DNA of 64,000 bases, from assembly GCA_045630265.1 (NCBI GenBank), contig JAZQSV010000041.1, forward strand, positions 525 through 64,524, written 5' to 3'. This DNA comes from Acutalibacteraceae bacterium (GTDB taxonomy: Bacteria > Bacillota > Clostridia > Oscillospirales > Acutalibacteraceae). The position numbers were made by a program, and so were the translations under genes. The notes beneath the pieces were generated by a model. The model saw only the letters and a program-made list of their open reading frames with translations, searched no databases and had not been told where the DNA came from. Position 1 is the stretch's first letter. The number at the start of each line of letters is the position of its first letter. Below are positions 5,672 through 21,314 of this stretch, in pieces.

Positions 5672-5870
5672 TTTTGTGCCTCCTATATTAAAAGTAGCAA
5701 GATTATTATATCATTTTTTTCGAAAAAATCAAGTTATTTTTCAAAAGGCGGTTTGTCCTGCAAAAAATTTTAAAAAACATCGAAAAATGTATATTTTTCT
5801 ATTTTACTTATAGCTTTCGGTGTGGTACAATAATATATGATAGATAGATTTTAAAAAAGGAGGTGTGGCA

Positions 5871-6893
5871 ATGGGCGAAAAAAATAGTAGCAAGGCAAAA
5901 ACCTGGATAATTTCCTTTATAGCACTTGTAGTTGTTATTGTTTTGGGGGCTTCGGTTATGGGAATTCAGTATTTTTCCATTAAAAACTCCAACAAAGAGC
6001 TAAACGGCAAAATATCGGAGCTTGAAAACAAAAACAAACAGCTTGAAAGCGAAAAGGTGTCCAACCAAAGCTTTTTGGATGGGGTGCAGAGTCAAATTAC
6101 GGAGTTTGAAAACAAGCTGAATGAGCAAAACGGTGTCATAAGCGATTTACAGCAAGAAAATGAAAACCTTAAAACAGAGGTTTCGCGCCTTACACAAATG
6201 AAGGCAAAGGCAGATAAAAATGAAACCAATCAAGCTCTTGCATATTATAAATCGCTCAACACGGGACCGAAGGTCTGTTATTTAACCTTTGATGACGGAC
6301 CTTCGGATAACACTCTAAAAATTCTAAACATTTTAAAGACGGGTAACACCAAAGCTACCTTTTTTGTTATGGGCACTAAAAAAATGGAGTACCTAAACAA
6401 TATTAAAAATGACGGTCATGCAATAGGTCTTCATACCGATACGCACGAGTGGACACTTTATAAAACCGAAGAAACCTATTTTGCCGACCTTTACGCCATA
6501 AGGGATAAGGTGCAAAGTATTACGGGACTAAGTCCGAATATAATTCGCTTTCCGGGAGGAAGCAGTAACGCCATAAGCCGACGGTATAACCACGGCATTA
6601 TGACCCGACTTACACAAAGCGTTGCTGAACAGGGTTTTTATTTTTTTGATTGGAACGTTGATTCGGGCGACGCTTCGGGTGGCAAAATTTCTGTCAACAC
6701 CATTCTGAATAATATTAAAAAGCAAAGCAAAAATAAGACGGAAATTTGCATTTTGATGCATGATACCGATAGTAAAAACACAACCGTTCAGGCACTGCCT
6801 TACATAATAAGCTACCTTCGAAGCGAGGGTTTTCGCTTTGAGGTGCTAAGCGGAGAAACCAATGGTTTTCACCACGAAAACCGTTATAACTGA
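5871..6893 (+). CDS. polysaccharide deacetylase (NodB/CE4) with N-terminal TM helix and coiled coil
   Basis: NodB motifs (CYLTFDDGP, GLHTDTHEW, IIRFPGG). The ATG at 5871 lies 7 nt after AGGAGG. Confidence 0.85.
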   Translation: MGEKNSSKAKTWIISFIALVVVIVLGASVMGIQYFSIKNSNKELNGKISELENKNKQLESEKVSNQSFLDGVQSQITEFENKLNEQNGVISDLQQENENLKTEVSRLTQMKAKADKNETNQALAYYKSLNTGPKVCYLTFDDGPSDNTLKILNILKTGNTKATFFVMGTKKMEYLNNIKNDGHAIGLHTDTHEWTLYKTEETYFADLYAIRDKVQSITGLSPNIIRFPGGSSNAISRRYNHGIMTRLTQSVAEQGFYFFDWNVDSGDASGGKISVNTILNNIKKQSKNKTEICILMHDTDSKNTTVQALPYIISYLRSEGFRFEVLSGETNGFHHENRYN

Positions 6894-6936: not shown

Positions 6937-6950
6937 ACAAATTGGGCTTA

Positions 6951-6989
6951 AATAAAAAGTTGTGGCTTATTTTTTAAGTAAGCCACAAC
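6951..6989 (-). terminator. intrinsic terminator of the orphan transcription unit
   Basis: Minus-strand RNA reads GUUGUGGCUUA-loop-UAAGCCACAAC followed by UUUUUAUU. Confidence 0.7.
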
Positions 6990-7339
6990 CAAACAAGTGA
7001 GTATATTAAAAATGTTACAAAAGTTTGTTTATATATTAAATTTAAGTATCAATTCGAACCGATTTATCCTAAATCGTAAAAGATTATCAGAACATTGGAC
7101 CCACCCTTAAAGTTTATTCTTTGTACTTGCGCGTGGGCGCTAAAATCTGAATCAGTAACACCTTCTTGTAGGTTTTTCTCATAACATTAACCTCATTTCT
7201 GGTTTTTGCCTCGCCGATAACCTGATTTTCAGGTAACCTTATTTCGGCGAAACGGCTGCCTGCCACGGTTCTGTTAACTTCACCGGAAACAGCCCCTTTC
7301 TTTATCGTCTGGTCTTTTCTTATCCTATCTCTTCTTTCT
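6953..7339 (-). ncRNA. candidate ncRNA of about 385 nt, or a leader with micro-ORFs; family unknown
   Basis: Bounded by an exact consensus promoter and a strong terminator. Contains stable hairpins (GGCUG..CAGCC; CGCCGA..ACCUGA-AAA-UCAGGU..UCGGCG). There is no long ORF downstream of the predicted TSS. Confidence 0.35.
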
Positions 7340-7345
7340 GGCTTT

Positions 7346-7374
7346 ATTATAGCACCTAAAACCTTAGTTGTCAA
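7346..7374 (-). promoter_or_regulatory. exact consensus sigma-A promoter, TTGACA-17-TATAAT
   Basis: Minus-strand TTGACA at 7374-7369 and TATAAT at 7351-7346 with a 17-nt spacer. It lies inside the 98-aa track ORF 7114..7410. Confidence 0.6.
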
Positions 7375-7525
7375 TAGTTTTTTGAAATATTTTTCAAAAG
7401 TTATGCACATTTTAAAATAAATTTAGTGAAAATCACCATAAATCGACAAGAAATTGTAACAATTTGCAAAAAAGGACAATTTATTGCAAATTGACATTCC
7501 CTAGTAGATTTGTCTGTTTTGTAGC

Positions 7526-8800
7526 TTACCAAACAAGTGCCTCGCACATAATGGCCTCTATTTTAGGGTAGATGCCTGCAAAGGCGGTTATGGGCAATGG
7601 GTTTTGTCCGCGTCCTGCCTCCACCGTGTACGCGGGGCGACGGTAGTTTTGCAAAAACCAGTCCTTATACCCTGCATAGTTAGAAAATTCGGGAGGAGAG
7701 GTAAGCAAATAACGAGAAACATCGGCCATAAGTTCGCCAAGCCGCCTAGACTCCTCTGTGGCATAGTTTTTAAACTGCCAATATATTTCTTCGCCTTGTG
7801 TGTGAAGTGAAATGGTTATATCAAAATCCTCTCTGAGGGTTAGGGAAAACATATTTTTTGTTTCAATGGCTGATAAGGGTGCAGTACCCACATAATCTCT
7901 GGGAGCGGGCTGATTAAATCCCGCCGCAAATTTAAGCTCTCTTGCCCTTTGCCAGTCGGCAGGGTAGTTAAGGTTTAGGTCAGTACCTTTAATATTTGCT
8001 TTCCAACCGTTTGGAAAAGGGATGTCGGGAAATCTTGCACCTATATCGTAGGCTTCTTTATAAAACGGGCTGTTTTTATCCAAGGCGTCGGTTACAAGGT
8101 CAACTCCATCGGGATTTACTAATGGTACGGCATAAAGTGTGCGCGAATTAAAAATTTCCTCCGCCGAATATCCGGCAATATAACCTGCGTTTATTACCTT
8201 TATAGAAAAGTTTTCAATAAAGGCAAGCAGAAGCGGTGTTGTAATCCATTCGTTGGCGTGGTGTGAAGCATTTGCAAAAACCGTTTTTTCACCTTTACCC
8301 ACCGTTAGCATTAAAATGCGTTTTCCCATTACGCTACGGCCAACGGTAGAAAGCATTAAAAACGGATAACGCGCCACAAGCCCCTCAATTACAAGCTCGG
8401 TGAGTAGTGAGGAATATGGAATGTCGGTTGGCACCACCTTAAAGCTGTATGGGATAATAATGTTTTCGCCTACGGTAAGATTTTCGGGGAAAATATCGGG
8501 ATTTGCCGTTTCTATTAAAGGCACTGTACTGTAAAATTGTCTGGCTAGGTTATAAAGTGTATCACCGCTTTTAATGGTGTAGGTTGTGTAGCCGGTTATG
8601 TATTTTTTAATTCTCAGCATGGTTTCCCTGCCCGCAATACCATCCGCGCTTATGCCTTCATCTGCCTGAAAGCGTCTTAGTGCGGCTTCGGTTTTGTCCC
8701 CAAAAATGCCATCCTTTTGGGAATTAAGATAACCCGAGCGCGCAAGAGCCAACTGCAAAAGCGAAACAAGACTTCCTCTGTCACCTTTTTTAAGTATCAT
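7526..8800 (-). CDS. M14 peptidase (gamma-D-glutamyl-diamino acid endopeptidase-like) with PG_binding_1 and LysM domains
   Basis: The N-terminus (GDRGSLVSLLQLALARSGY...DGIFGDKTEAALRRFQ) is PG-binding. YTIKSGDTLYNLARQF is LysM. The catalytic set is SHHANEW (HxxE), SLHTQGE and TVEAG. Confidence 0.85.
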   Translation of the reverse strand: MILKKGDRGSLVSLLQLALARSGYLNSQKDGIFGDKTEAALRRFQADEGISADGIAGRETMLRIKKYITGYTTYTIKSGDTLYNLARQFYSTVPLIETANPDIFPENLTVGENIIIPYSFKVVPTDIPYSSLLTELVIEGLVARYPFLMLSTVGRSVMGKRILMLTVGKGEKTVFANASHHANEWITTPLLLAFIENFSIKVINAGYIAGYSAEEIFNSRTLYAVPLVNPDGVDLVTDALDKNSPFYKEAYDIGARFPDIPFPNGWKANIKGTDLNLNYPADWQRARELKFAAGFNQPAPRDYVGTAPLSAIETKNMFSLTLREDFDITISLHTQGEEIYWQFKNYATEESRRLGELMADVSRYLLTSPPEFSNYAGYKDWFLQNYRRPAYTVEAGRGQNPLPITAFAGIYPKIEAIMCEALVW

Positions 8801-8865
8801 AAAATCACTCCTTTTTAAGATTATATGTTTTCTCCTTACATATTATTTGAAAAGGGGTGATTTAA

Positions 8866-9567
8866 ATGTTTGCAGCGTTATTTTTGGATAATAAAAAAAG
8901 GGGCCTTTATAAAATAAAATGCAAATACTTTTTGTGGCAAAAGGTGAGAATTACTTTTGTTTTAGCCCCCGTCCCAAAAAATGCAGGGCAACTTAAAAAG
9001 CTAAAGAATGCGCTTAGTGAATATAAAGGAAGGGTTATCCTTACCGCTAAAACAAAAATCCACTCCGAGCTTGAGGCTTATTTATATAATGGTGAAAATT
9101 TTATGAAACGGGTATTTGCAGAGGCGTTTTTTACGTATGTGAAAAAGCAAAGACCAAAGGCGATAGCTATATTTGATGATGGATTTTTAAACTTGAATTA
9201 TTATAAAACCTTGTCTACCTATACCGATGGAATGTACTTGGAATGTTCCCTGCCGCAGGAAGCCCTGGCAGAGGAGATACTAAAAGAAAGTGGGATTGTT
9301 ATTTGGCGAAAAAATTTAGCCAAAAATGGCACTGCATTCCTTAATTTGGATAAAGACAGAAAAGAAACATTTTTGGGATTAGACAATAAAATTTTCGACG
9401 TCAGGGATATGGAAAATTTAAGCGCAGAGCTTAAAACATTACTGCCAAAGGAACTGAAAGAGCTTTCCCCCTTTTCGGTTTTGTCCTTTTTGTTTTATCA
9501 GTGCGGTGAAAGGGTAGTACTGGAGTCGGCGGTTAAAATAGTTCTAAGCGCTCAAAAATACTTGTAA
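8866..9567 (+). CDS. hypothetical protein
   Basis: ATG 5 nt after an AAGGGGTGA SD. Ordinary amino-acid composition. No family recognised. Confidence 0.5.
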   Translation: MFAALFLDNKKRGLYKIKCKYFLWQKVRITFVLAPVPKNAGQLKKLKNALSEYKGRVILTAKTKIHSELEAYLYNGENFMKRVFAEAFFTYVKKQRPKAIAIFDDGFLNLNYYKTLSTYTDGMYLECSLPQEALAEEILKESGIVIWRKNLAKNGTAFLNLDKDRKETFLGLDNKIFDVRDMENLSAELKTLLPKELKELSPFSVLSFLFYQCGERVVLESAVKIVLSAQKYL

Positions 9568-15778: not shown

Positions 15779-16591
15779 ATGAAGAAAAATCTCACACACA
15801 AAATAACAGAAAGTGCAGTGCTTTTAGCCCTGGCTACAATACTAAGCGTTATTAAGCTTGTAGATATGCCTGTGGGGGGGAGCGTAACTTTATGCAGTAT
15901 GTTGCCCGTTTTGCTAATATCCTATAGATTTTCACCCGCCTTTGGGTTTTTAGGCGGCTTTGTTTATAGCGTTATTCAGCTCATTTTGGGCACCGAAAAT
16001 CTGTCCTACGCCACCTCGGCCTTAGCGACGGTAGCAATAATTTTATTCGACTATTTGCTTCCCTTTACCCTTATAGCGGTTGGTGGAATTTTCAAAAAAT
16101 TTATTAAGAATCAAGCGGCGGCCATTACCGTAGGTATGGCAACGGCATCTGTTATAAGGTATATCTGCCATACCATTTCGGGCTGTACCGTTTGGGCGGG
16201 ACTTTTGGTGCCCAGTAAAGAGGCACTTATATATTCTCTAAGCTATAATGCTACCTATATGCTACCCGAGCTTATTATAGGAGTTGTCGGTGCGTTCTAT
16301 CTCTCTCTTTCAGTAGATTTCTCGTCAGAGCGTTTAAGAAGACTTTCTACCTCAAAAAGCGGCGTAAAGGTTGGCGCACTTTCTGTTATAGGAAAGGTTT
16401 TAGCCGCAGTAACACTAATTTTGGACGTAGTACTTATTGCCCCCCACCTGCAAAACACTGAAAGCGGCGAGCTTTTTATGGCCGGCATTAAAAATATTAA
16501 CCTGACGGCGCTTCTTATTGTTACCGTTTTGGGTATATTTTTAACAGCGGCATGTAGTATAATTCCAAAAATTTTGACAAAAAAGGACTAA
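15779..16591 (+). CDS. thiT: ECF-transporter S component ThiT (thiamine) with a C-terminal extension
   Basis: KITESAVLLALATILSVIKLVDMPVGGSVTLCSMLPVLLISYRF, plus TPP riboswitch control. The ATG at 15779 follows a GAAAGGAAAAG SD. Confidence 0.8.
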   Translation: MKKNLTHKITESAVLLALATILSVIKLVDMPVGGSVTLCSMLPVLLISYRFSPAFGFLGGFVYSVIQLILGTENLSYATSALATVAIILFDYLLPFTLIAVGGIFKKFIKNQAAAITVGMATASVIRYICHTISGCTVWAGLLVPSKEALIYSLSYNATYMLPELIIGVVGAFYLSLSVDFSSERLRRLSTSKSGVKVGALSVIGKVLAAVTLILDVVLIAPHLQNTESGELFMAGIKNINLTALLIVTVLGIFLTAACSIIPKILTKKD

Positions 16592-16713
16592 AAAAGACTA
16601 AAATTTGCATCAAAAACCCTCCGAAACGCAAGTTATACTTGACTTTTTTGTGGAAAAATGTATAATTGAAATATAGATTTTCAAATTATATATTTTGAAA
16701 AGGAGGGTTTTCT

Positions 16714-17799
16714 TTGATAGGGTCTGTACTTTTTAAAGAGCGCGAACTTATTTTGCGCTTTAAAATGTCTGCTTCAGGTACTATCGAAAAGGCACCTTAC
16801 TCGCTTGGCGGCGCACTTTGTGATTTTACTGCTGTTAAGCCCACAATTTCTGAAAAGCTTTTTAAAATTTTAAATAAAAAGTTTGTGGCAGATACCTCTG
16901 CCCGTATTGATACACCTACTATTGGTGCATACGTTCCCTTCCTTCGCAAGGCGCTGGAAACAAACCCGTATCTATTTCTTTATTTGAAGTTCTATGCCGA
17001 GGCTCTTATCCTTTCCTGCGAAAGCAAGGCCGAGCTTATTCCTTTTTTAAAGGAGTTTTTGTCTAAAGAAGTGGCCGAACGGCATTTAGAGGGCATTATT
17101 GCTTTGGCCGACGCAGAGCAGACCGCTAACTGGCTTGGTGCAGTTATTTTAGAGGATTTTGAATATAGGCGTAACCGTCTGAAAGGTCAGCTTGACAGAA
17201 TTATATTTGGCACAACAGGCCTTGAGGATTTTACTCCAGAGCAAAGGTTTTTCATTTTAAAACAGGAAAGCGGTAGTGGTATTACAGGCAGCTTTACTGT
17301 TAACCTTTCTTCCGAGTATAACTTTGAAAGCTCCTCTAATCTTGGTACAATTAAGGCCGTTTTAAAGGGGAGCAATGAGGGTATAGCTGCGGAGTACGAA
17401 ATTAACACTCCCGACGACCTTGCCTCCATTGAACTTTTTATCACAATTTTGGCCGAGCTTCCTATGAAAAAGTGCCGCTGCTGTGGTGAATATTTTGTTC
17501 CGGTTGGCAGAAGCGACAGTGAGTATTGTAGCCGTAGCACCTTGGGTGACGAAAAGCGTTGCGACCAGATAGGCGCCATGAAAACCTTCAAGGGCAAATA
17601 CGCTGAAAATCCCATATATGCCGAGTATAATAAGGTGTATAAGCGTAACCATTCAAGACTTCGTAACGGCAAGATTTATGAGTCGGAGTTTAAAGAGTGG
17701 TCGGCCGCCGCAAGGCGTATGAGGGATGAGTTTATCAGTGAGAATCGCTCAGCTGAGGAGTTTGCCGAAAAGCTAAAAGAACTTGAAATTGCAGAATAA
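16714..17799 (+). CDS. hypothetical protein with C-terminal Cys cluster
   Basis: TTG start 7 nt after AGGAGGG. The C-terminal CRCCGEYFVPVGRSDSEYCSRSTLGDEKRCDQ suggests a zinc ribbon. Confidence 0.55.
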   Translation: MIGSVLFKERELILRFKMSASGTIEKAPYSLGGALCDFTAVKPTISEKLFKILNKKFVADTSARIDTPTIGAYVPFLRKALETNPYLFLYLKFYAEALILSCESKAELIPFLKEFLSKEVAERHLEGIIALADAEQTANWLGAVILEDFEYRRNRLKGQLDRIIFGTTGLEDFTPEQRFFILKQESGSGITGSFTVNLSSEYNFESSSNLGTIKAVLKGSNEGIAAEYEINTPDDLASIELFITILAELPMKKCRCCGEYFVPVGRSDSEYCSRSTLGDEKRCDQIGAMKTFKGKYAENPIYAEYNKVYKRNHSRLRNGKIYESEFKEWSAAARRMRDEFISENRSAEEFAEKLKELEIAE

Positions 17800-21008: not shown

Positions 21009-21314
21009 CCCATGCGATGGGCGGCGAGTTCGCGCATTCGGTTGGCAAAAGTTTTTAAAATGCGCCCGCGCTTAAAAGTTGCAAGACTGCTCATTTTTTT
21101 TAAAAATGTATATCTTTTAATTTCCTTCCCTGTTCGTGGACCGTGGTATTCTATAACCCTACAACCTTTATTTAGGGGACCTATCTCCCGCGGCGGGCTT
21201 GCAGACCTCCCGATTTTTATCGGACGAAGGGAGCGCGAAACCGTGGGGCGGCCACCCACCTGTTTTATTTGCAGGTTATCAAGCTGCCACTTGCGGCAGG
21301 GCAGGAAAATTTGT
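21008..21314. ncRNA. GC-rich structured non-coding region; candidate ncRNA of unknown family and strand
   Basis: About 300 nt with six or more local hairpins and no protein-like ORF. GC is visibly above that of the flanks. Confidence 0.3.

Follow-up and report, generated by a model that had tools for sequence, protein, structure and literature searches.

Several described systems bear on small bacterial RNAs that carry very short reading frames. Dual-function small RNAs include RNAIII/hld of Staphylococcus aureus and SR1/SR1P of Bacillus subtilis. Leader-peptide translational attenuation of the erm and cat type relies on a short leader frame that shares sequence with alternative helices extending to the next start region. 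Phage lambda bar is a two-codon minigene. Other two-codon minigenes are found in the LEE1 leader of enterohemorrhagic Escherichia coli (AUG-AAA-UAG; PMC3262186) and in axe-txe (ATG-ACT-TAA; PMC8708949), where their translation affects, in cis, the adjacent cistron or the stability of the mRNA and where the spacing to the neighboring frame matters (PMC3262186, PMC8708949). On the polycistronic small-peptide mRNA yrzI of B. subtilis, ribosomes at an exceptionally strong Shine-Dalgarno sequence protect the mRNA and block RNase J1 (PMC12067863). Here we analyze an element on the minus strand, at positions 6950 to 7374, of a 64,000-nucleotide (nt) stretch of contig JAZQSV010000041.1 from an Acutalibacteraceae bacterium (assembly GCA_045630265.1); this whole stretch is called the window, and coordinates are window positions unless a contig is named. 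In this unit, a promoter and a terminator bracket three micro open reading frames (ORFs), which we call ORF-A, ORF-B and the minigene box. We put at about even odds, a probability of roughly 0.5, the reading that the unit is a free-standing, strongly promoted RNA gene of ~390 nt that acts by being translated, with its micro-ORFs working as a relay.

The unit resembles each of the described systems in part. As in erm/cat attenuation, the helices overlapped by a short frame (ORF-A) extend to where the next one (ORF-B) starts. Here, however, the regulated frame has only 22 codons, there is no drug-resistance gene, the ORF-A peptide is not conserved outside the genus, and the modelled unmasking of the ORF-B start region is inconsistent. 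Like the dual-function small RNAs, the unit has a promoter and a terminator of its own, specifies a structured RNA a few hundred nt long and encodes a predicted peptide in the class of 20-40 amino acids (aa), but it has no homology to them and holds several frames, one of them a minigene. The box has the parts of a two-codon minigene at the sequence level, namely a ribosome-binding site, an AUG, one sense codon and a stop. Whereas the LEE1, axe-txe and bar minigenes lie upstream of the gene that they affect, the box lies directly downstream of ORF-B, and it is conserved nucleotide for nucleotide across families, to a degree that a ribosome-binding site and a start codon would by no means require. 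The likeness to yrzI (spyTA) lies in a short mRNA (~0.5 kb) with several small ORFs, a very strong Shine-Dalgarno sequence and a structured 3' end (PMC12067863). There is no sequence similarity between the two, however, and the yrzI peptides are longer, one being toxic and one its antidote, while yrzI decay proceeds via Rae1 cleavage inside a frame (PMC12067863). The unit has in addition a two-codon minigene and a covarying leader fold.

The sigma-A promoter of the unit (7346..7374, minus strand) consists of TTGACA at 7374-7369, a 17-nt spacer, and TGcTATAAT at 7354-7346 (TG extension 7354-7353), with an A/T-rich stretch (TCAAAAAACTA) upstream of it. Exact matches to TTGACA-N17-TATAAT occur three times in the window, compared to 0.06 times in dinucleotide-preserving shuffles, and neither the -35 box nor the extended -10 box shows any variation across 12 of 12 aligned relatives. 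From the promoter we infer a transcript start at ~7339, which would open a purine-rich, unstructured leader (7297..7339, minus strand). A and G make up 86% of these first 43 nt, and the purine content of the leader is 77-87% in 11 of 12 relatives despite a variable sequence. The predicted RNA runs for ~388 nt to an intrinsic terminator (6950..6990, minus strand) with a 12-bp stem, a 9-nt loop and a CUUUUUAUUU tail. The stem (6990-6979:6969-6958) has 11 Watson-Crick pairs and one G-U pair and a calculated stability of -16.3 kcal/mol. This terminator is absent from an automatic scan because the loop limit of that scan is 8 nt, one less than the loop found here; a terminator is present at the equivalent place in every relative. 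The full predicted transcript is more stable than shuffled sequences (z = -3.9). An original prediction, made from the letters of the window, had proposed an exact consensus promoter, one of three in the window and beyond what chance would give, a purine-rich transcript start, and a strong terminator ~385 nt downstream, and all of these are borne out.

The unit also stands by itself. The downstream gene (5865-6893, plus strand) is convergent with the unit and has its own terminator. The flanking gene is an M14 peptidase gene in this genome and a SCIFF peptide gene or a tRNA gene in relatives; since the flanking genes differ in this way, the unit is autonomous, as had been predicted. Five relatives (L005, L006, L008, L009 and L013) have the unit divergent from the gene for the six-cysteine SCIFF peptide and its radical-SAM maturase. 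In this genome SCIFF lies on another contig (C60, ~16500-16950), and upstream of it on the same strand we noticed by eye what appears to be a different small promoter-to-terminator unit of ~80 nt (TTGAAT-17-TGCTATAAT ... GCCGCCCAAAGGGGCGGTATTTTATTTT).

ORF-B shows the coding type of substitution. Its ribosome-binding site and frame occupy 7114..7194 on the minus strand, with GAGG at 7194-7191 and the ORF at 7182-7114, and it encodes MRKTYKKVLLIQILAPTRKYKE, a predicted peptide of 22 aa with a net charge of +6. The frame is open in all relatives (20-25 codons), and its stop always lies 0-8 nt ahead of the box. Within a clade of five species, differences at the first, second and third codon positions number 36/20/74, and there are 34 synonymous codon changes in this frame versus 9 and 5 in the shifted frames. 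As judged from these alignments, the substitution pattern of ORF-B is a coding signature. The predicted peptides of the relatives carry charges of +2 to +6, an N-terminal cluster of Lys and Arg, and a hydrophobic core of 8-12 residues. SpoVM and other known small proteins were considered as identities for ORF-B and set aside, as no profile in Pfam or NCBIfam matched. A helix between ORF-B codons 5-8 and the region behind the box is significant in seven relatives and not in the window. We also observed that the AUC or AUU codons that stand at the ORF-B start in some relatives (L004-L007 and L012; aligned to window 7182-7180) each lie behind a perfect AGGAG site (UAAGGAGUG), and that relatives with an AUG start have slightly weaker ribosome-binding sites. 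These starts resemble those of infC, which is under start-codon-based control.

The 5' part of the unit combines a second frame with a conserved fold. Start region A and ORF-A lie at 7239..7299 on the minus strand, with AAAGGGG at 7299-7293, a GTG start codon at 7283-7281 and the 14-codon frame at 7283-7239, which encodes VKLTEPWQAAVSPK followed by a stop. Pairing of start region A with the 3' tail of 16S rRNA is predicted at -12.9 kcal/mol. ORF-A is found in 12 of 12 aligned relatives with 13-15 codons and the consensus M-x-x-(x)-E-P-W/F-x-x-A-V-x-x-x-stop; all three indels (3/3) are multiples of 3, and the stop codon stands in a single alignment column. Among the relatives with 13 codons, differences by codon position (53/57/82) show a moderate third-position excess. 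It is probably the translating of this frame, more than the sequence of its peptide, that matters, to judge from these comparisons. A 14-codon ORF with a GTG start and a 22-codon ORF were both in the original prediction and are located as described there. The accompanying statement, that the unit holds only micro-ORFs and no credible gene, understates the case: these two micro-ORFs are the parts that selection preserves, with start, frame and stop intact in every relative.

Two hairpins dominate this 5' module. RNAalifold places hairpin P1 at 7254..7294 (minus strand; outer helix 7294-7288:7260-7254), where it encloses the ORF-A ribosome-binding site, its start codon (7283-7281, paired with 7267-7265) and the first 9 codons. 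Hairpin P2 follows at 7208..7253 (minus strand), with an outer helix 7253-7244:7217-7208 and an inner helix 7234-7229:7225-7220; its 5' arm is made of the last ORF-A codons, and the ORF-A stop codon falls in its internal loop. We scored covariation on a MAFFT alignment made without reference to structure. The comparative set comprises 13-15 related sequences, so the counts of compensatory changes are not counts of independent events. In P1, 93% of the cells are paired and compensatory changes are found at 4 of the 7 outer pairs, and the outer helix of P2, which is 8-12 bp long in every relative, has such changes at 6 of 9 pairs. For the two hairpins together, 92.7% of the cells are paired versus 36-52% in slid controls, compensatory changes occur in 10 of 19 pairs, and none of 500 shuffles reaches the observed values. 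Both strong hairpins of the original prediction exist, and compensatory changes among the relatives support them. In 12 of 12 sequences, the ribosome-binding site and the start codon of ORF-A are predicted to be mostly paired (unpaired probability 0.09-0.29).

A third helix, a possible pseudoknot or alternative pairing, links the two frames (7201..7238, minus strand). In it, the segment directly 3' of the ORF-A stop (GGUU, 7238-7235) pairs with AACC (7204-7201) just upstream of the ORF-B ribosome-binding site. The sequences of 12 of 12 relatives allow this helix, the pairs being exchanged in cases such as GGGUU:AACCC, GGGCAG:CUGCCC and AGCCC:GGGCU; in L052, a locus from a different genus, this loop segment has its complement in the ribosome-binding site of ORF-B. 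The arrangement suggests that a ribosome finishing ORF-A may remodel the ORF-B start region, although a simple thermodynamic test of this effect gave different outcomes in different species. As a separate observation, a start-region and hairpin module like that of ORF-A (AAGAAAGAGGUUGAGUCCAAUG and a 13-codon frame) lies ~70 nt upstream of an Hsp20 (alpha-crystallin) gene in another genome (L056; G237:C25, 1501-1640), so a protein-coding gene, too, can have this module for its leader. RNA thermometers come to mind here, as the hairpin conceals the ribosome-binding site and the start codon in front of a heat-shock gene.

The most conserved element of the unit is the minigene box, which the original prediction had not listed. 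The box (AAGGGTGGGTCCAATGTTCTGA; 7087..7108, minus strand) has a ribosome-binding site at 7107-7101, ATG at 7095-7093, TTC at 7092-7090 and TGA at 7089-7087, and in the window it begins 6 nt after the ORF-B stop. Its 22-nt consensus, AAGGGUGRGWCCAAUGUWCURA, reads as a ribosome-binding site, a 5-nt spacer, Met, Phe or Tyr, and a stop. Both the box and start region A have extended complementarity to the 16S 3' tail, predicted at -12 to -15 kcal/mol, and the ORF-A start region (AAAGGGGCUGNNUCCAAUG) is a paralogue of the box. In the window, the ribosome-binding site of the box can also pair with the ORF-B codons GCCCAC (7138-7133) at a predicted -13.0 kcal/mol; on direct reading, relatives with the G variant of the box carry the same GCCCAC complement. 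The AGGGUGG of the box resembles a T-box motif as well. A T-box was considered and dropped, because no model matches, no gene lies downstream, and most boxes read UGAG and not UGGN.

A search with the degenerate 22-mer found the box in 37 species genomes out of 185,579, compared to ~2 expected by chance. By their record titles, nearly all of the 37 are Oscillospirales-type metagenome-assembled genomes (MAGs) from gut or rumen, and they belong to several families. The exact 16-mer, in which the codons are left out, occurs in 14 of 401 genomes of the order, and a reversed-pattern control gave 0. Most of these genomes have the box as the first element of a unit that is 300-450 nt long and strongly promoted. 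In such promoter-proximal units of this unbiased sample, which we call canonical, the box always leads into 1-3 sense codons that end at an in-frame stop (MY, MYK, MKK, MNK or MYR). Exceptions among the box loci are one 7-codon frame and tandem boxes that open longer frames. The tandem boxes were observed at the level of the order (L076-L078), ~55 nt apart (AGAGGUGAGUCCAAUG ... AAGGGUGAGUCCAAUG), each opening a longer frame, upstream of a conserved gene whose product starts MKNKLQIVPF. At their 3' end, canonical units have AGAAAGAGAGGUUAA, a 9-codon frame (MLDIKSEQK and variants), and a terminator with the stop codon of that frame in its 5' arm; neither a conserved downstream gene nor an Rfam match was found for them.

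Compared to the canonical RNAs (L016-L049, L066-L075), the unit has the same box, including the GUCCA spacer, the AUG, 1-3 codons and the stop, and it shares with them the type of promoter with an A-rich upstream stretch, the stand-alone form with a terminator, in which canonical members measure 300-450 nt, and the bacterial order. It differs in layout. The canonical box lies at the very 5' end, within ~10 nt of the start, whereas here it is internal, at about +232, and a start region similar to the box (AAAGGGGCUGUUUCCGGUG) occupies the 5' position, where it opens the 14-codon frame in the folded module. The unit has gained a gene for a 22-codon peptide and lacks the canonical 9-codon frame (MLD[IT]K); a regular-expression search of this whole genome found that motif only at the start of serS. 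Two genomes of the same genus (G007 and G010) carry both a window-type unit and canonical units with the 9-codon frame. Thus, the two forms are paralogues, and the window type is a distinct branch rather than just a local orthologue. On the basis of these shared features, the unit is classed by sequence as a divergent member of an uncatalogued Oscillospirales family of minigene-box RNAs, in which very strong ribosome-binding sites precede tiny frames.

The 9-codon frame of the canonical units has a likeness of its own. It begins MLD[IT]K, or M-x-D-P-[NI] in other members (L066-L075, L092, L098, L104, L105), and the N-termini of seryl-tRNA synthetases commonly take these two forms. The MLDIK found in this genome opens serS itself (MLDIKFIKANP..., 423 aa; contig C50, ~6883). 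We roughly estimate the chance of such a 5-residue match at ~1-3%. The likeness could be coincidence, shared ancestry with the 5' region of serS, or mimicry.

The RNA family of the unit is uncatalogued. No family in Rfam 15 reached its gathering score in the unit; the matches with E-values up to 10 were noise, the best of them covering the terminator only. The models for tmRNA, 6S, SRP, RNase P, T-box and riboswitches are among those that do not match the unit, no Rfam family was found for 16 related loci, distant members included, and ARAGORN found neither a tRNA nor a tmRNA in the unit. In a full-text search of the open-access literature, the box and the peptide strings occurred in no paper. 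Elsewhere in the window, Rfam models matched three unrelated RNAs (TPP, purine and 6S). The 6S (SsrS) match, at 21119-21311 on the plus strand, scores 48.0 bits against a gathering score of 46.4 and falls within a GC-rich, hairpin-dense, non-coding block of 300 nt.

We also considered the 98-aa ORF that the gene track places at 7114..7410 on the minus strand, and we rejected it as a gene. It is spurious, a chance upstream extension of the ORF-B frame: it begins upstream of the promoter, it runs in the same frame as ORF-B, and it is open in this genome only. Over its span, all 11 of the compared relatives have at least two stops in each of the three frames, and a check for a conserved frame found none. 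The original prediction had matched the unit by eye to none of the common RNA classes and had seen no credible gene in it, the 98-aa ORF included; both points agree with these results.

A DNA search of 40 related genomes found the unit within the same genus. The closest copy is 79% identical over the whole length, and what remoter copies retain is chiefly the promoter with the first 110-150 nt. With a covariance model of the 5' module, one copy each was found in 14 of the 19 genomes of the genus. A diverged copy that this model missed, in G017, makes a fifteenth, so at least 15 of 19 carry the unit; the check for conservation in close relatives, set beforehand, thus came out in favor of the original prediction. 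The same model matched in only 7 of 301 genomes of the family at large, and a scan of metagenomes gave 3 matches, 1 of them real. This genome has a single copy of the unit and of the box. By record titles, the relatives are Acutalibacteraceae and other Oscillospirales MAGs from the guts of goat, deer, cattle, yak, chicken and human. In the diverged copy (L103; G017:C43), we noticed that ORF-A has 23 codons (MDKAEPIQFKFITGRLFTGFKVA), that ORF-B starts with AUU, and that an additional minigene, AUG CAC UAA, lies inside the unit, whose last box reads AUG UAC UAA; modules are reshuffled inside a single genus. A phage origin was considered and rejected, as IMG/VR holds just one match to the box. 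That sole match on a viral or proviral contig (L092; IMGVR_UViG_3300029719_000214, ~8800-8960) is a minimal canonical unit of ~110 nt with a promoter, a box with MYS-stop, a ribosome-binding site, MLDTKNER-stop and a terminator.

Taken as a relay, the unit would work as follows. The unstructured, purine-rich 5' end may let 30S subunits wait on standby, from where ribosomes would enter ORF-A, whose own start region is held in P1. Translation of its 14 codons would melt P1, the 5' arm of P2, and the long-range helix that reaches the front of ORF-B. The ORF-B start region would thereby be opened, with the 22-residue cationic peptide as the likely product. As the ribosome-binding site of the box is predicted to be paired with ORF-B codons in the window, it would open only while ORF-B is being read, and the box might then hold a ribosome that would cycle on its two codons and so protect the RNA's 3' part. 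There are published precedents for the elements of such a relay, namely the protection of yrzI mRNA by ribosomes at its Shine-Dalgarno sequence (PMC12067863), the cis action of two-codon minigenes (PMC3262186, PMC8708949), and CreT as an RNA whose translation is its mode of action (PMC8501985). The sequences show the anatomy, its conservation, the covariation and the coding-type substitutions of ORF-B, whereas transcription, the translation of each frame, the direction of coupling and any role of the peptide are inferred.

Several observations weigh against the relay. On the side of ORF-A, the third-position excess is absent from the group of relatives with 14 codons, and other genera keep the start region and the hairpin with a different ORF-A peptide (e.g. 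MNSEPQHQIGRFVK and MYDEEPFQGISRAL); RNA structure may account for part of the conservation of ORF-A. The long-range helix has only 4 bp in the window. When occupancy of ORF-A by a ribosome was modelled by forcing its footprint to be single-stranded, unmasking of the ORF-B start was inconsistent, its unpaired probability going up in ~4 sequences and staying flat or going down in the rest. RNAalifold found no common fold for the region of ORF-B and the box. As to ORF-B itself, 8 of 13 relatives have an ATG start codon and the other 5 have ATC or ATT at the aligned position, and searches of Pfam and NCBIfam with E-values up to 10 gave no match other than sub-threshold, signal-peptide-like matches for one orthologue. 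The peptide as an amphipathic helix had to be dropped as a general description, since only ~5 of 14 orthologues, and not the peptide of the window, show a significant hydrophobic moment.

Some of these points would also fit a purely non-coding regulatory RNA, whether a base-pairing small RNA or a protein sponge, with the conserved hairpins and the purine-rich stretches that resemble ribosome-binding sites as its functional parts and the small frames as by-products. There is covariation in P1, in P2 and in the long-range helix, shuffled sequences fold less stably, start region A and the box are conserved more as nucleotides than as peptides, the third-position bias of ORF-A is weak or absent, and 5 of 13 relatives have AUC or AUU at the ORF-B start. 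We nevertheless consider this explanation unlikely: every frame keeps its ribosome-binding site, start, frame and stop, with indels in multiples of three, ORF-B has a clear excess of synonymous changes, and wherever the box opens a canonical unit it keeps an in-frame stop after 1-3 codons. Moreover, conserved unpaired nucleotides are few outside the start regions, unlike in an aptamer or in a sponge with repeated motifs, and the unit holds just two GGA motifs. If the frames are translated, the product might still be occupancy itself, as in an RNA that captures ribosomes or tRNAs in the manner of lambda bar or CreT, by sequestering tRNA-Phe or tRNA-Tyr or by loading peptidyl-tRNA hydrolase. The box is indeed a minigene of two codons, its ribosome-binding site is strong, and the promoter ahead of it is of the consensus type; minigene toxicity is higher when the minigene is short, has a strong ribosome-binding site and ends in UAA (PMC8708949), and CreT RNAs act through translation and sequester rare tRNAs (PMC8501985). 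A capture RNA of this kind is distinctly improbable, however, given that there is one box and no array, and one copy in this genome, that the second codon is a common Phe or Tyr codon and not a rare one, and that the ribosome-binding site of the box is predicted to be paired in the window. Some relatives have MKK or MNK, so no single tRNA would be targeted.

The ORF-B peptide could instead be the toxin of a small module, either a type I toxin-antitoxin system or a pair like SpyT/SpyA, controlled by the leader, by ORF-A or by an antisense RNA. A short, highly structured, strongly promoted mRNA for a cationic peptide of 20-25 aa with a hydrophobic core would suit such a module, the weak AUC and AUU starts and the masked start regions fit tight control, and the yrzI operon, with toxin and antidote peptides on one mRNA, is a precedent (PMC12067863). 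Yet the hydrophobic stretch of 8-12 residues is interrupted by Lys or His and is too short for a membrane span (~18 or more), and the consensus promoter suggests constitutive high expression. A consensus scan found no promoter site with at least 9 matches on the plus strand inside 6951-7339, which is weak evidence of absence; Pfam and NCBIfam gave no match in searches that did not extend to the PADLOC defence library. The unit is also single-copy, vertically conserved and not on mobile DNA, with the single box match in IMG/VR, and we regard a toxin role as very doubtful. That the unit is a cis-acting leader or attenuator of a neighboring protein-coding gene is extremely improbable. Its leader ORF and alternative pairings do resemble the design of an attenuator, and the similar module ahead of hsp20 in another genus is placed like one, but the unit is closed by a strong terminator, no protein-coding gene that it could control follows the 22 codons of ORF-B, the next gene (5865-6893) is convergent and separately terminated, and the flanking genes vary among relatives.

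Returning to the relay, a further step would be that the unit is a sensor of the translational state built only from contacts between ribosome and RNA, a speculative proposal that we hold to be quite unlikely. If it were true, the sensor would consist of the standby leader, the hairpin-gated ORF-A, the pseudoknot-like link to ORF-B and the box, the output would be the cationic peptide, the life-time of the RNA, or both, and the unit would report on free ribosomes, initiation factors, aromatic aminoacyl-tRNA or the capacity of peptidyl-tRNA hydrolase. The nucleotide-perfect conservation of the box among bacterial families, including its GUCCA spacer, would then point to a specific contact with the ribosome or with an unknown factor, and the unit would belong to a new class of translation-sensing small genes in gut Clostridia.

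The remaining 3' part of the unit has two further features. Behind the box lies a small hairpin, CGAUUUA-GGA-UAAAUCG (7060..7076, minus strand), read from the sequence as 7 bp with a GGA triloop; it is identical in one relative (L002), and a similar motif occurs in another (L011). Between this hairpin and the terminator, alignment of the relatives shows an A/U-rich, weakly conserved 3' spacer (6991..7059, minus strand), which in relatives is 100-230 nt long and variable in sequence. Five relatives have an extra ribosome-binding site and an MKNKII-stop mini-ORF just ahead of the terminator; this mini-ORF does not occur in the window.

Oscillospirales are among the most abundant and least cultured bacteria of gut and rumen, and their small genes go unannotated. 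At this locus, the gene caller offered a spurious ORF of 98 aa in place of three conserved micro-ORFs of 14, 22 and 2 codons. The box and the covariance model of the 5' module can serve as simple annotation markers for such genes, and a tryptic fragment of ORF-B, VLLIQILAPTR, can be searched for directly in metaproteomes. Through the unit, a small-peptide gene specific to its lineage is connected with a wider RNA family, whose mark is a ribosome-loading minigene of 22 nt in which every nucleotide is conserved. If the relay reading is true, this one RNA would be a natural combination of a two-codon minigene, ribosome "parking" at a strong Shine-Dalgarno sequence and gating by a leader frame, mechanisms for which the known examples are otherwise mostly isolated ones from E. 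coli and B. subtilis.

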